37,278 nucleotides of DNA, from IMG/VR virus record IMGVR_UViG_2872698443_000007. One strand, written 5' to 3'. The notes beneath the pieces were generated by a model. That model was not told the DNA's origin, did no database searches, and saw only the letters and a list, made by a program, of their open reading frames with translations. The position numbers were made by a program, and so were the translations under genes. The stretch comes from a virus (Duplodnaviria > Heunggongvirae > Uroviricota > Caudoviricetes). Numbering within the stretch: position 1 is the first letter of the stretch; each line of letters starts with the position of its first letter. Below are positions 26,030 through 37,278 of the stretch, piece after piece.

Positions 26030-27796
26030 TTAATTATTATCGTATAACTCCTGAATTTTTGCTGGATTAGCAAAAAACCTTGCAGGATAAGCATTTGGAT
26101 AATTATCTTCGATATAATTTTCTGTCCTAGCTATTAATGCTGCTAAATTAGCAGTGATTTGTGCTGAATCAGGAGCAAGCTGAATGGTACTATTCTGTAA
26201 ATCTGACACCATATTCAACAGCACTGAAGCATAATATCTATTACCATGAGTTATTATTAAATGACGGCGACTATGCGTTGATTTATCTGTAGCTGCTAAA
26301 GTTGAGCTAATAGCACGTTCTATCACACGAAAATGGTTAACAGCATTTATTAACTTGATACCACTTAATCGCGGATTGAAAATTGTTCTATATAATGACC
26401 CTTCAAAATTTTCAAAAAACCTACCACGATTAGATTTTAAAGTTGCAACTATAGTATTATTTTTACTTAAGCAAGCTAGAGCATTCAAAGCCTCATCGAG
26501 ATCAATTACCTTGGCGTTAGACTGTAAATAATCCTCATCGGTTCGCAATAATTGGTATTGATACCCTTCAAGCACAAGCTCTCTCGCCAGTCTATGCTGA
26601 TCGGGTTGTTGTGAAGCAAAATCTCTTCCTAAAACTCTATTCTGGAAATTATTAGCTCTGGTTATTGCATTGGCATTGAGATCATTTACATCATTATTAA
26701 TTTCAATAAAACGAACAGGGACTTTAACTTGATAAATTCTATCGCCTAGCACATCCATAACACTGCCTAAACTACTCACAGTTTGCGCGCCGTTGATCAC
26801 ACTCACATCTTTAAAATCGAAAACCCCTCTTTCAGTGCCTGCAGCTGCGTTTCTTCTGTGAGGAATTAACTCGTTCACTAGTAACGTAATACCGTTATTG
26901 TAAAACCAAAACATTTCTGGATTATCAATTGCAGTTTTTTTTATTTCTTCGTTAACATCTGTCTTACCAAGCATATTTCTTATGTTTTTCGTAAAAAGGC
27001 GGGTTCCATATTGTTTCCACCAATTCCCAACCTGGTCCCCAGCTAAAGTTCCATAAAATGCTCTGTAAGGTTCATTAATAAACCCATAGCGTTCAACTTC
27101 TACGCCATCCAAATCAATTTGACCTCTTGAGCCAGTCTGCAACCAATGGACTAAATCCTCTGATGAAATCAAATGAACTTGAAACCCCCATTCTTCTTTC
27201 GGTGATTCTGTCGGGGTAAACGACGCTTCATTTAATTCACGTTGCCACTCTTGCATATCACGTAAAATATCTTCTGAGGCACCTTTTTTCCCTGTGTGAG
27301 TCATAGCGAAGATAAATTTATAATCAAATGAATTAAGAGCTGCGCTTATATCTGAACTCTTATCTTGAAGAATCTGGTCAAAAAGTTCATATCGTTCATT
27401 CTGAAGTTTTTCACAAGCATCCTTGAAGCACACAAAATCAGGTCTGCTCCAAGTACCATTTCCAGCCTGATTAAATTTGGACTGAACAACTACAACAATT
27501 TTTTCACTATGATTTATGACTATGCCATCAATGCCTCCATCCTCAGAACTGTCGCATACAGACTCACCTGCATGCTTTTCATCAACACCACCAAGTTGAT
27601 ACATCGTAAACGCCGCCAGAGCCCTACTTGCCATTTTAATATTGTAATCTTGTTGACTGGGTTGGCACTCTCGCTTATGAACATAGTCTTCAAACCTTTC
27701 TCTCAAAACACTACCAAGCCTTAGAGCTATAACTTGCGCCGTCGCCGCTGCAGCTACAGCGTTATCCTCAACTCGGAGATCTACAACGAATGCCAT
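26030..27796 (-). CDS. cargo protein with N-terminal Mrr-type PD-(D/E)xK nuclease signature; function unknown, candidate defence effector
   Basis: ~588 aa from the first ATG at 27796 (AAGGA ribosome-binding site 8 nt upstream); the ORF track extends to a TTG at 27823. Motif ...EDGGIDGIVINHSEKIVVVVQSKF... fits the restriction-endonuclease D-x(n)-Q/E-x-K pattern. No Walker A motif. AT-rich relative to flanking phage genes. Confidence 0.6.
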   Translation of the reverse strand: MAFVVDLRVEDNAVAAAATAQVIALRLGSVLRERFEDYVHKRECQPSQQDYNIKMASRALAAFTMYQLGGVDEKHAGESVCDSSEDGGIDGIVINHSEKIVVVVQSKFNQAGNGTWSRPDFVCFKDACEKLQNERYELFDQILQDKSSDISAALNSFDYKFIFAMTHTGKKGASEDILRDMQEWQRELNEASFTPTESPKEEWGFQVHLISSEDLVHWLQTGSRGQIDLDGVEVERYGFINEPYRAFYGTLAGDQVGNWWKQYGTRLFTKNIRNMLGKTDVNEEIKKTAIDNPEMFWFYNNGITLLVNELIPHRRNAAAGTERGVFDFKDVSVINGAQTVSSLGSVMDVLGDRIYQVKVPVRFIEINNDVNDLNANAITRANNFQNRVLGRDFASQQPDQHRLARELVLEGYQYQLLRTDEDYLQSNAKVIDLDEALNALACLSKNNTIVATLKSNRGRFFENFEGSLYRTIFNPRLSGIKLINAVNHFRVIERAISSTLAATDKSTHSRRHLIITHGNRYYASVLLNMVSDLQNSTIQLAPDSAQITANLAALIARTENYIEDNYPNAYPARFFANPAKIQELYDNN

Positions 27797-27976
27797 TAAT
27801 TTTTCCTTATAGAATATGTACAACGTTAGCAGTGATTAAAAGGTTACTCGTTAAGCGGAAATTGTACTACAACATTCTACTAAATATGGATATATCAATG
27901 AGTAAGAACTCATCTTTGCTAACTCACATACATTGTTAAAAATACTTAGCTTCGCTGTTCACCCCGTCGCCGCGCG

Positions 27977-28167: not shown

Positions 28168-29040
28168 TTAAGCTCTCTTAATCAACCCCTTATGCGTTGC
28201 TTTGGTAAGATAAGCTAATTCTTTAGGCCCCTTATCTCTAAAGCCCACCCATTCTGGTTGGATTTTTATAAAACTTGGAATTGCGGTTGCCAAGGCTGTA
28301 ACCATACCGGGAATAATACCGCCTGAATAACCAGCAATAGCAGCATGGTACAACGGTTTTAAAAATTCCATAACCTGCCCACCATCTACTTCTGGATTGG
28401 CTTTGACTCCCATTCTGATAGGATTTCTCCATTTCCCTTCGATAGCTTTATCAAGATTAACTACAGCCTCTTGTAATAAAGAAAAATTTTTAGCCCTCGT
28501 TAGATTAGGGTCTCTAGAATAAAGGACTTCAGTATACAGTTTTTCTAAGTACTCATGTAACGCATTAAGATCATCCTGACAATCATCTTTAAAACGTAAT
28601 ATATCTTCTATATGAGCATCTTTATCAGGAATTCTCAGAACATTAAACAACTCCAATCTCAACTGAAGGGCCGTTTTCTGTTCTTTATCATATATTAAAT
28701 TTTCCCCTGTTTGATGAAAGTGCCAATAAGTAGCAGGCTCGTTCTTCCTGAATTCATCCAATGTCTGCAACTGAAATTCCGTATATAAAAATGGAAAGTC
28801 TTGGATATTCAGCATACCATCATGTTTCATAATAGGTCTACGTAATACCCCATTATCTAATAATTCTTTTTCTTTAGGCACAATCGAGTGAATATTTTCA
28901 CTATCTAGAATAACCACATCATCCCAGTAAAAGCAGAAATAATTAATATCCTGCTCAGTTAAACCTGCCCCAAGATAGACCGTACTATTATTTCTATGAA
29001 AACTCATTTCATTAGGATTAGCTACAATGCCACGTTTCAT
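28168..29040 (-). CDS. hypothetical cargo protein, function unknown (position of P2 tin/old)
   Basis: ~290 aa from the ATG at 29040 (AAGGAG ribosome-binding site 5 nt upstream): MKRGIVANPNEMSFHRNNSTVYLGAGLTEQ... Strongly AT-rich. C-terminal hydrophobic stretch GGIIPGMVTALATAIPSFI. No recognisable catalytic motif. Confidence 0.6.
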   Translation of the reverse strand: MKRGIVANPNEMSFHRNNSTVYLGAGLTEQDINYFCFYWDDVVILDSENIHSIVPKEKELLDNGVLRRPIMKHDGMLNIQDFPFLYTEFQLQTLDEFRKNEPATYWHFHQTGENLIYDKEQKTALQLRLELFNVLRIPDKDAHIEDILRFKDDCQDDLNALHEYLEKLYTEVLYSRDPNLTRAKNFSLLQEAVVNLDKAIEGKWRNPIRMGVKANPEVDGGQVMEFLKPLYHAAIAGYSGGIIPGMVTALATAIPSFIKIQPEWVGFRDKGPKELAYLTKATHKGLIKRA

Positions 29041-29251
29041 TCTTGCTCCTTGATAAGCATACACATTTTAAGAATGACATATATTCTAATAATTTCAATA
29101 CATTATGAGTTATAACTAAAAGTGCAGCATAGGTCTCGCCCTGATAGATAATCAAGTGATTACTGTCTTTTTACTTATGGTTAACGCCTCTCAAGGCTCG
29201 CGGTTCAACCTTGCTGACGCCAGAAGCAGGTTCAGACGCCAGCAACGTTTC

Positions 29252-35156: not shown

Positions 35157-35275
35157 GATGCAACATTCCTCGTTTAATGATGATTAATCAGGACGAATAC
35201 GGATCGTTTGTATTTTGTGAACACCATAAACATACGATCGCACAGTGAAATCGTCAAGATAAAAGTTCACTTGGA

Positions 35276-35851
35276 GTGACCATGAATTTGGAGAAAGGCG
35301 GACGAGGCGCTATAGAGCGCATGGTAGAAGCTTATGGATTCAAGACTCGACAGGCGTTGTGCGATCATTTAGGAATCTCTAAAAGTACACTCGCCACACG
35401 CTACATGCGTGACTCATTCCCAGCAGAATGGGTAATCCAGTGCGCCCTTGAAACAGGCACCTCGCTTAATTGGCTCACAACCGGGCATGGTTCAAAGCAA
35501 ACTTCAGGTAATACAAATACTATGGAAGTTGCTAAATATGTATTATCTGATGGGGCCTTGTGTGAAGACGGTTTTTATATTTTCGATAGAGAATTTCTAC
35601 CGTCGGCATTCAAGAATCTTTTTGTAATCACAGATAATAATTCTGAATTTATTTGTGATAAGGAATTTGATGATATACGTGATGGTAAATGGGTAATAAG
35701 TATTGATGGCGAAATAACGATCCGTGACATTACTCGTTTACCCGGTGGAAGAATCTTCGTCGAGGGTGGAAACAGAGCCTTCGAATGCAAGATAGAAGAC
35801 ATTGAAATAATTGGTAAAATTATAAGTTTAACAGTCAAGTATGTTAAATAG
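35276..35851 (+). CDS. cI: immunity repressor CI
   Basis: 191 aa with N-terminal helix-turn-helix (...LCDHLGISKSTLATRYMRD...); divergent from apl and upstream of int, as in 186. Confidence 0.7.
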   Translation: MTMNLEKGGRGAIERMVEAYGFKTRQALCDHLGISKSTLATRYMRDSFPAEWVIQCALETGTSLNWLTTGHGSKQTSGNTNTMEVAKYVLSDGALCEDGFYIFDREFLPSAFKNLFVITDNNSEFICDKEFDDIRDGKWVISIDGEITIRDITRLPGGRIFVEGGNRAFECKIEDIEIIGKIISLTVKYVK

Positions 35852-35866
35852 TACCGGGAGGAAATT

Positions 35867-36058
35867 ATGCTTGGTAAGGTATTTTTTGTGGTTTTGTCAT
35901 GTTCTTTGTTATTAAACCCACTAGCTACCTATGCTAGAAATTATCCCTGCTCAGGGAAAAAGGGAGGTGTTTCTCACTGTACCTCTGATGGCAAATTCGT
36001 TTGCAATGATGGAACTATTAGTAAATCCAAAAAAATCTGTACTAAAAACTCACGATAA
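35867..36058 (+). CDS. small secreted cysteine-containing protein (moron between cI and int)
   Basis: 63 aa; predicted signal peptide [23 protein letters not shown]; ~40-aa mature part with four Cys and many Lys; GGAGG ribosome-binding site upstream. Confidence 0.5.
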
Positions 36059-36246
36059 CTTTTGCTTTTATATCTGCGCCTAAAATAAAAATGAGCCACA
36101 GGTTAACCGCAAAAGTTACATGCTCACATAGCAAAAAGAATAGCCTACTTCATTATGGCTTCAGTGAGATGTATGGTCGCAGGATTTCATACATTGACAC
36201 TGGTTATACATACAGTAAAAATGCTCTCTATTGGAGGGCATTTTTT

Positions 36247-37278
36247 ATGGCTGTACGAAAACTCACCACAGGAAAATGGCTTTGCGAATGTTACCCCGCC
36301 GGACGTAGTGGGCGTCGTGTGCGTAAACAATTCGCCACCAAAGGCGAAGCACTGGCTTTTGAGCGTCACACGATGGAAGAAACCGAAGCAAAGCCCTGGC
36401 TGGGTGAATCAGTGGATCGTCGAACACTGAAAGACGTGGTTGAGCTATGGTTCAAACTACATGGTAAATCACTGACTGCTGGGCAGCATGTCTATGACAA
36501 ATTGCTGCTGATGGTTGACGCTCTGGGCAATCCCCTTGCAACTGATCTCACATCTAAAATGTTTGCCCACTATCGAGATAAACGCCTGACAGGTGAGATC
36601 TACTTCAGCGAGAAATGGAAGAAAGGAGCAAGCCCGGTCACCATTAACCTGGAGCAAAGCTATCTAAGTAGTGTTTTTAGCGAACTATCCCGCCTGGGCG
36701 AATGGTCGTATCCGAACCCACTGGAGAACATGCGAAAATTCACCATCGCAGAAAAAGAGATGGCATGGCTTACCCATGAGCAGATTGTTGAATTGCTGGC
36801 TGATTGCAAACGTCAGGACCCAATTCTGGCACTGGTAGTTAAGATATGCTTAAGCACAGGCGCACGTTGGCGTGAAGCCGTAAATCTTACCCGCTCACAG
36901 GTGACCAAATACCGAATTACCTTTGTAAGAACGAAGGGGAAGAAAAACAGAAGCATCCCTATCAGTAAAGAGCTTTACGAAGAGATCATGGCGCTTGATG
37001 GGTTCAATTTCTTTACAGACTGCTATTTTCAATTTTTATCCGTGATGGAAAAAACGTCTATCGTGCTCCCTCGCGGTCAACTGACACACGTTCTGCGCCA
37101 TACGTTTGCGGCGCACTTCATGATGTCGGGTGGAAATATCCTGGCCTTACAAAAAATTCTCGGGCATCACGATATAAAAATGACTATGCGTTACGCACAT
37201 CTGGCACCGGATCACCTGGAAACTGCATTACGGTTTAATCCGCTGGCAACACTACCAACATCAATAGCAAGTTTTTGA
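36247..37278 (+). CDS. int: tyrosine integrase
   Basis: 343 aa from MAVRKLTTGKWLCECYPAGRSG...; C-terminus has the R...HxxR...Y catalytic pattern (...VLRHTFAAHFM...MTMRYAHL). Stop at 37276-37278 is the last codon in the window. Confidence 0.85.
   Translation: MAVRKLTTGKWLCECYPAGRSGRRVRKQFATKGEALAFERHTMEETEAKPWLGESVDRRTLKDVVELWFKLHGKSLTAGQHVYDKLLLMVDALGNPLATDLTSKMFAHYRDKRLTGEIYFSEKWKKGASPVTINLEQSYLSSVFSELSRLGEWSYPNPLENMRKFTIAEKEMAWLTHEQIVELLADCKRQDPILALVVKICLSTGARWREAVNLTRSQVTKYRITFVRTKGKKNRSIPISKELYEEIMALDGFNFFTDCYFQFLSVMEKTSIVLPRGQLTHVLRHTFAAHFMMSGGNILALQKILGHHDIKMTMRYAHLAPDHLETALRFNPLATLPTSIASF

Follow-up and report, generated by a model that had tools for sequence, protein, structure and literature searches.

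A YdcA-family gene behind the 186-type repressor of an Escherichia coli prophage: a highly conserved, predicted exported four-cysteine domain with a possible role in lysogenic conversion

A small open reading frame (ORF) separates the immunity repressor gene, cI, from the integrase gene, int, at the right-hand end of IMG/VR record IMGVR_UViG_2872698443_000007, a 37,278-nucleotide stretch of Caudoviricetes DNA (hereafter, the window). This ORF, called ydcA below after the protein family to which it belongs, occupies positions 35867–36058 on the + strand, begins with ATG, ends with TAA and has 63 codons, giving a product of 63 amino acids (aa). A Shine–Dalgarno sequence, GGGAGG, can be read at 35856–35861 (+), 5 nt from the ATG. 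The preceding gene (35282–35851, +; an alternative GTG start at 35276, +, appears in the ORF listing) encodes a 186-type CI repressor, with Pfam matches to Phage_CI_repr (PF07022, 2.8e-33) and Phage_CI_C (PF16452, 2.7e-27), and is annotated in RefSeq as ‘phage repressor protein CI’ in the identical stretch of E. coli HS; divergent Apl/Cox-like and CII genes lie upstream. The cI stop codon (35849–35851) is separated from the start of ydcA by a gap of 15 nt. On the other side, a tyrosine integrase gene (36247–37278, +; start as in the RefSeq annotation of E. coli HS), whose stop codon ends the window, matches Int_N (PF24624, 3e-32), Phage_integrase (PF00589, 6.8e-22) and phrog_1 (8.7e-75). Between the cI stop and the int start (35852–36246) there is no further conserved ORF beside ydcA. 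Phage 186 lacks the small ORF, and its cI stop codon overlaps the beginning of int, which agrees with the premise of an earlier note on this DNA, made from the sequence alone, that repressor and integrase ordinarily lie close together. GC content is 31–38% over 35500–36200, versus 44–54% in the flanks, and this low-GC stretch spans the C-terminal half of cI and the spacer as well as ydcA, in keeping with a joint spread of cI and ydcA and suggesting that they were acquired or exchanged as one block.

The predicted protein is a Sec-type signal peptide followed by a 40-residue domain with four conserved cysteines and conserved lysine, serine, histidine and aspartate positions. The signal peptide (residues 1–23; 35867–35935, +), delimited by comparison with homologues, has a basic n-region (K4), a hydrophobic core of 12 residues (mean Kyte–Doolittle value 2.86), a proline at position 18 and T-Y-A at −3 to −1, and would be cut by signal peptidase I after Ala23; the features expected for that enzyme are present, namely the basic n-region, a hydrophobic region within 10–15 residues and the small residues T21 and A23. 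In alignments of 30–39 homologues the leader varies in sequence yet is always hydrophobic, and the alanine at −1 is conserved in at least 90% of homologues, which makes this position invariant or almost invariant. A hydrophobic 9-mer plus K/R precedes the domain in 133 of 138 family representatives, in which the domain starts at residue 26 (median). The AlphaFold2 model has a helix at residues 3–14 and a predicted local distance difference test (pLDDT) score of 88–90 for residues 31–50. The mature part (residues 24–63, with the stop codon 35936–36058, +) has cysteines at positions 28, 38, 46 and 58, nine K/R against two D/E and a net charge of +7, compared with a family mean of +3.5. It contains every position of the YdcA motif, P-C-S-G-K-K-G-G-[VI]-x-x-C ... 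F-[VI]-C-x-D-G-x-x-S-x-S-K-x-x-C, of which the 27-residue core is almost unchanged among the aligned homologues; P27, C28, K32, G33, G34, C38, F44, C46, G49, S52, S54, K55 and C58 are among the columns that vary hardly or not at all. The anatomy described in the earlier note (a 63-aa ORF with a signal-peptide layout and a mature part of some 40 residues bearing four cysteines) is thus borne out. A lipobox prediction had also been proposed there, and V-L-S-C at residues 9–12 does loosely fit the consensus [LVI][ASTVI][GAS]C, which, together with the name ‘Lipoprotein’ given to a Yersinia homologue in one UniRef entry, would allow the product to be an outer- or inner-membrane lipoprotein cut by signal peptidase II at Cys12 and acting like the receptor blockers Llp or Cor. 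Homologues have L, F, I, V or G at this position, however, the leader of the Yersinia homologue lacks cysteine altogether, cleavage at Cys12 would leave a leader of only 11 residues, too close to the N-terminus, and the invariant feature is the alanine ahead of the mature core. The lipoprotein reading is therefore highly improbable and can be regarded as effectively refuted.

By family score and codon comparison, the small ORF is a real and strongly constrained coding sequence. The product scores 114.6 bits against NCBIfam model NF007463 (cutoff 93), with residues 5–63 aligned to model positions 1–58 of 58; it matches phrog_6000 (E 3.1e-34), and an identical protein carries a precomputed match to Pfam PF27300 ‘YdcA’. 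The codons of the window gene were compared with those of variants from other prophages (BL21(DE3), CE10, FDAARGOS_433, Hafnia and an E. coli variant of 61 aa). Against either of the last two, the mature core of 35 codons shows changes at 20 of about 22 synonymous sites, versus only 3–4 of 83 non-synonymous sites. The ratio of non-synonymous to synonymous substitution rates (dN/dS) is 0.024–0.035 where dS is unsaturated, synonymous sites being saturated in comparisons with the most distant variants, and these values place the mature core under extreme purifying selection. The codons of the signal peptide have a dN/dS of 0.4–0.55, with hydrophobicity kept. A chance ORF or decaying remnant in the non-coding spacer between cI and int might be suspected from the short length and AT-richness of the sequence and from the fact that the equivalent ORF is unannotated in some records, including those of HP2 and Acinetobacter phages. 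This has a negligible probability, given that hundreds of genomes, from five or more genera, carry an undamaged copy of the ORF, and it is refuted by the score above a curated family cutoff and by the combination of saturated dS with almost no amino-acid change.

The gene is already catalogued as a member of the YdcA family on these matches; the homology search suggested in the earlier note returned a curated match. Newer RefSeq records label the product ‘YdcA family protein’, others ‘hypothetical protein’. Two UniRef entries (Enterobacteriaceae and Salmonella Typhi) call the identical protein of 63 aa ‘Conjugal transfer protein’, a curious name in view of the similarity to the secretion-system subunit Dis2 described below. 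A Pfam-A scan, with a copy lacking PF27300, gave only a sub-threshold match to GULLO2 and no match to DUF3761. The family (PF27300; NF007462/NF007463/NF007464 = PRK10040; PHROG 6000) includes YdcA of E. coli K-12 (b1419), which has the same signal peptide and core of about 35 residues with four cysteines and the same motif. The window gene differs from it in being prophage-borne, in lying behind cI, in belonging to the NF007463 subgroup and in its more cationic product (the +7 against +3.5 given above). The cutoff of the 57-aa model NF007462, which we take from its length to represent the K-12 chromosomal type, was missed by the window protein (68.5 bits versus a cutoff of 118); the family sequence P0184 matches the K-12 YdcA sequence. 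The core sequences of the prophage and chromosomal copies are nearly identical. A HMMER scan of 1.84 billion cluster representatives recovered 452 family representatives (50% clustering) at E ≤ 1e-3, most of them chromosomal, without phage context and widespread in Proteobacteria; a stand-alone example, from a Moraxellaceae-like genome, is flanked by hom and cysS. A core of 34 residues hardly changes from Haemophilus to Rhizobium. In viruses, at least 537 IMG/VR contigs encode a relative, and the best 80 of these are 98–100% identical. Among 5426 complete E. coli genomes, 648 have this type of cI and 590 (about one in nine) have a 395-bp cI–int spacer with the small ORF; the 1.2 kb from 35200 to 36400 recur at 100% identity in many complete genomes of the species. 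The gene lies in a prophage adjoining rcdA/ybjJ in E. coli HS, and in BL21(DE3) the order cI–ydcA–int has been kept in a decayed prophage; the gene is also intact in a decayed prophage of CE10.

The association with cI extends well beyond E. coli. A 186-like prophage of Hafnia has the order cI–ydcA–347-aa gene–int, a second E. coli lineage has cI–ydcA (61 aa)–KAP NTPase–int, and the cI–ydcA pair is also found in Yersinia alsatica, Y. aldovae, Y. nurmii and Buttiauxella. Haemophilus phage HP2 (NC_003315) has an unannotated YdcA-family ORF of 60 codons that overlaps the cI stop, on the − strand (2944–3126 of locus L001, about 2486–2668 of the record), and encodes a protein beginning MKKL; a second signal-peptide protein, orf1(S), is encoded between this ORF and int. 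HP2 and S2 are the only ones among 140 phage records with a 186-type cI to have a YdcA homologue. In Moraxella and Acinetobacter siphophages, a homologue occurs among the tail genes. The earlier note’s treatment of the gene as a one-off insertion does not hold, since it belongs to a catalogued, mostly chromosomal family and the cI–ydcA pair travels across several genera.

Other genes occupy the cI–int slot in Klebsiella phage 4LV2017 and in vB_EcoM-813R9. In sibling prophages that share the int-proximal sequence, the slot holds a homologue of PD-Lambda-1 (E 3e-120), a KAP NTPase of the PDC-S20 type (E 1e-171) or uncharacterised proteins of 347–349 aa (cargo sites L005 5198–6529, L023 4252–5583, L004 804–2480, L003 813–1862, L016 5247–6290 and L022 4432–6189). 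The KAP NTPase gene of the siblings replaces the stretch 36036–36158, and CE10 has an insertion of ISEc53 and an adjoining ClbS/DfsB gene at about 36204–36211. Judged from these gene orders, the cI–int slot is a cargo site in which ydcA is the most constant occupant directly after cI, with variable genes added 3′ of it. No description of the slot as a hotspot was found in searchable papers, and searches of two papers on the diversity and regulation of P2-like phages brought up no gene in this position. By comparison with related phages that have the same flanking genes and lack it, ydcA is distributed like a moron; the suggestion of a moron-type position in the earlier note fits both this absence, which includes phage 186, and the recognised anti-phage genes found in the same slot of sibling prophages.

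No + strand promoter or terminator was predicted between cI and ydcA, so the gene, lying 3′ of cI, should be made in the lysogen, and would be transcribed with cI from the lysogenic promoter. The gap between ydcA and int consists of a lineage-specific spacer (36059–36158) followed by a module that is common to all siblings whatever their cargo; similarity to the int upstream regions of other prophages resumes at 36158–36204, depending on the prophage. A repeat search detected an imperfect inverted repeat starting from the stop codon of ydcA (36056–36118, +), with 15-nt arms (87% complementary), a 33-nt loop and no U-tract, and this repeat forms a stem in the RNA fold of 36040–36270 (z-score −4.2). 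Within the common module, a promoter-like sequence, TTGACA-17-AAAAAT (36194–36222, +; 10 of 12 consensus matches), has the palindrome ACTG-N10-CAGT in its spacer, and TTGAC and the palindrome are kept in eight sibling prophages with different cargo. It overlaps a terminator-like hairpin followed by U6 (36217–36245, +; −14.5 kcal/mol, z-score −5.0), which lies directly before the int ATG and contains the int ribosome-binding site, GGAGGG, in its 3′ arm. Equivalent hairpins form in siblings when each sequence is folded alone, with pairing kept (GCUCUC/GAGGGC, GCCCUC/GAGGGC and GUCCUC/GAGGAC). The stem changes between lineages in the module at 36189–36246 are compensatory, and this module is absent from phage 186.

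The hairpin was not flagged by a consensus terminator scan, and its interpretation therefore remains a lead; RNAalifold did not recover it from the int-upstream region, MAFFT having misaligned the stems. As such a lead, we infer that read-through from cI–ydcA may be terminated, or translationally masked, at the hairpin. By limiting read-through, the hairpin would make cI–ydcA the main lysogenic message, and transcripts from the int-proximal promoter would start inside the 5′ arm of the hairpin, leaving the ribosome-binding site exposed. This arrangement points to at least a partial uncoupling of int from the cI–ydcA transcript, unlike in 186, which could make the slot permissive for cargo. The lysogenic operon in which the earlier note placed the gene is supported as far as the position of the ORF 3′ of cI and the lack of an intervening predicted promoter are concerned; the operon may end after ydcA, given the conserved terminator-like hairpin just before int.

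The best match in the PDB, both by sequence profile and by Foldseek, is Dis2 (Lpg0823), from Legionella's Dot/Icm T4SS (type IV secretion system). With the leader included, the profile match has an E-value of 8.8e-5; with the domain alone, against PDB sequences, it is marginal (E 0.059). Dis2 is the top Foldseek match, with a probability of 0.93 and 38% identity over 39 columns at E 0.21, and nothing significant was found among the viral structures of BFVD. An hhalign comparison of the domain-only profile with a Dis2-like ORF gave 82% probability and 48% identity over 25 columns, and a Dis2-like protein carries a faint match to PF27300. When tandem-domain homologues were used singly as PDB queries, the outcome was weak (P0083, no Dis2 match; P0080, E 0.037), and a search with a Dis2 fragment recovered only two truncated Dis2-like proteins, too few for a Dis2 family profile. 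Dis2 is the only relative with a solved structure and is a non-enzymatic part of the Dot/Icm outer-membrane cap. It has been described as two similar lobes pinned by five disulfides, adjoining the outer membrane and contacting the lipoproteins DotC, DotD and DotK, with only subtle effects of its deletion; these studies treat it as specific to Legionellales and do not mention YdcA (PMC8486379, PMC12716638). Both proteins are led by a signal peptide, are disulfide-pinned (for YdcA, by prediction) and share C-x-x-x-GG-[VI]-x-x-C...G-x-[FLV]-VCN[DN]G-x-x-S. Dis2 has two lobes, extra cysteine pairs and no lysine-rich SKSKK tail, and forms part of a T4SS, whereas the window protein is a single domain; the neighbours of its gene are phage genes only, with no T4SS gene beside it, and it is thus not of the two-lobed, Dot/Icm-linked Dis2 type. 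Homology of the YdcA domain with the Dis2 lobes is probable, not established. Low-density lipoprotein receptor class A repeats also matched the domain-only profile (E 0.013–0.05), and were set aside as a convergence of Cys/Gly hairpins rather than homology.

The YdcA domain stands alone in most members of the family; in others it is present in two to three tandem copies (e.g. P0079–P0083). In 6 of 59 long members it is the N-terminal part of a secreted nuclease, the nucleases belonging to four unrelated Pfam families (Endonuclease_NS in three, and Endonuclea_NS_2, SNase and PLDc_2). The domain is also found joined to the PBCV basic adaptor domain, and P0118 and P0199 are examples of fusions. 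A further architecture is found in type VI secretion system (T6SS) clusters of Enterobacterales, where 19–20 of 80 species-level loci, from at least 12 enterobacterial genera, encode, as a conserved gene, a YdcA-domain protein of 130–140 aa in the order tssF–tssG–tssJ–tssE–(TssJ-like)–YdcA–(T5orf172 protein)–vasL, the T5orf172 neighbour often being present. Example loci are L089 (about 5–5914), L053, L066, L044 and some 16 others, in which the neighbour is a T5orf172/MUG113 membrane protein. The proteins of these clusters have the same N-terminal domain and signal peptide as the window protein; they differ by a basic tail, some 70 residues long, and by their place in a secretion-system operon, the window protein being a bare domain in a prophage.

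Judging from its sequence, its modelled structure and its relatives, the domain appears to behave as an exported, disulfide-stabilised, usually cationic and non-enzymatic binding module. The interpretation we prefer, tentatively and at a level just short of what we would call probable, is that the window gene is a functional YdcA-family moron behind cI, encoding a periplasmic binding module that serves as a lysogenic-conversion or exclusion-type factor. The mature protein would be exported to the periplasm, cut after Ala23 and oxidised to two disulfides, and its invariant K/S/H/D surface would hold a target common to all Proteobacteria, without the protein being an enzyme; the near-invariance of the domain from alpha- to gamma-proteobacteria argues for such a universally conserved target. 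Candidate targets are a polyanion (DNA, or a lipid or lipopolysaccharide phosphate) or a complex of outer-membrane lipoproteins on the periplasmic face of that membrane. DNA is favoured as the polyanion because of the nuclease fusions, and the lipoprotein complex is an alternative because of the likeness to Dis2 and the position next to tssJ. Constitutive supply from the prophage might then alter the fate of incoming phage, of transforming or conjugative DNA or of trans-envelope machines, and the outcome would be a lysogenic-conversion or exclusion-type factor. A broader version of this proposal would make the YdcA domain a widespread and hitherto unrecognised periplasmic adaptor module, homologous to the Dis2 lobes, accessory to an enterobacterial T6SS and serving several secreted nucleases as their targeting or binding part, with the prophage copy as a new periplasmic exclusion factor that binds, on the inner side of the outer membrane, incoming DNA or trans-envelope injection machinery; we consider this rather improbable as a whole.

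Several classical prophage morons and exclusion genes lie near the repressor or act at the envelope: rexAB in the cI operon of lambda, old, tin and fun of P2, and the receptor blockers Llp of T5 and Cor of phi80. The window gene resembles them in being accessory, unneeded for the phage cycle and placed for expression in the lysogen, with a product predicted to be directed to the envelope. The window protein has no sequence relationship to any of these and no PADLOC match, is neither a lipoprotein nor a membrane protein, and is extremely conserved instead of fast-evolving, with kin that are chromosomal, linked to T6SS and fused to nucleases. Superinfection exclusion, toxicity and envelope modification, which the earlier note offered as possible functions, are not shown by any of the results, and a scan of PADLOC-DB, which covers known and candidate defence proteins, with the small ORF found no family at E ≤ 0.001. 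A number of observations weigh against the preferred interpretation. Its conservation is unlike that of arms-race defence proteins, and ydcA shares the slot with defence genes instead of being swapped for them, which makes defence by location a weak argument; these two points together argue against a classical arms-race defence protein. Furthermore, most of the family is chromosomal and has no phage context, the nuclease fusions are a minority (the 6 of 59 long members), and the E. coli K-12 paralogue has been linked only to organic-acid tolerance (PMC7642389).

The last of these points leads to a serious rival, which we consider possible though on the unlikely side: the prophage copy would be a host-fitness factor doing the job of chromosomal YdcA, in tolerance to acid, organic-acid or envelope stress, with no anti-phage or DNA-related role. 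Deletion of ydcA in E. coli W has been found to cause sensitivity to 300 mM 3-hydroxypropionate; induction of the gene at pH 5, under YdcI, has also been reported (PMC7642389). The near-identity of the prophage and chromosomal cores, the survival of an intact gene in the defective prophages of BL21(DE3) and CE10 and the very low dN/dS, which fits a housekeeping-like ligand, all speak for this explanation. However, the phenotype of the chromosomal gene comes from a single growth assay, with a mechanism that was unclear to its authors; E. coli already has a chromosomal ydcA with its own model (NF007462), so a second copy needs a rationale in dosage or regulation; and the associations with T6SS, Dis2 and nucleases are left unexplained. 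Searches of the literature on ydcA, the ‘YdcA family’, PF27300, phrog_6000 and the RefSeq proteins yielded no functional study of the prophage gene. A small, disulfide-stabilised and strongly cationic (+7) product with a signal peptide could also be a secreted, bacteriocin-like antimicrobial or toxin-like peptide released by lysogens against competitors, and one paper reportedly counts a ‘YdcA family’ gene as part of the regions linked to the antimicrobial activity of Pseudomonas protegens PBL3. Sec export alone would leave such a peptide in the periplasm of its producer, though, and no immunity, processing or dedicated export gene adjoins ydcA, which has only cI on its 5′ side and int on its 3′ side; chromosomal single copies are, moreover, widespread without partners, and the domain is a building block of larger proteins and, in Dis2, has a structural role. 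An antimicrobial role is thus very unlikely.

Elsewhere in the window, two genes on the − strand separate the replication gene from the genes on the portal side: one (26030–27823) encodes a 597-aa AIPR/AbiU-like protein (Pfam AIPR, 1.5e-31; PADLOC AbiU, 5.8e-24) and the other (28168–29064) a 298-aa DUF6236 protein. Their site is the classical cargo position of old/tin in P2, and the two genes probably form a module for abortive infection. The left end of the window carries, at 144–1112 (+) and 2001–3686 (+), a DDE transposase of an insertion sequence (IS) and an Asp-Al_Ex/TrkA_C permease, both of which seem to lie beyond the prophage, in host or IS sequence.

The earlier note was right on the anatomy and placement of the gene, and wrong only in treating it as an unusual one-off insertion. 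The sequence feature itself is known and annotated; what is new are leads on the domain and on the cI–ydcA linkage. The searchable literature contains no mention of these leads, which comprise the possible link to Dis2, membership of T6SS clusters, the nuclease fusions, the linkage of cI with ydcA, including the unannotated gene of HP2, and the putative hairpin–promoter module before int. They concern a gene that stands behind the prophage repressor in about one in nine complete E. coli genomes, those of BL21(DE3) and HS among them. If ydcA encodes only a stress-tolerance protein, it is an ordinary moron. If the module binds DNA or an outer-membrane assembly, the orphan ydcA of K-12 would gain a function, Dis2 of Legionella, so far ‘species-specific’, would have kin outside Legionellales, an enterobacterial T6SS would have a candidate accessory component, and the prophage copies would stand for a new class of periplasmic conversion factor, encoded by prophages and open to testing.

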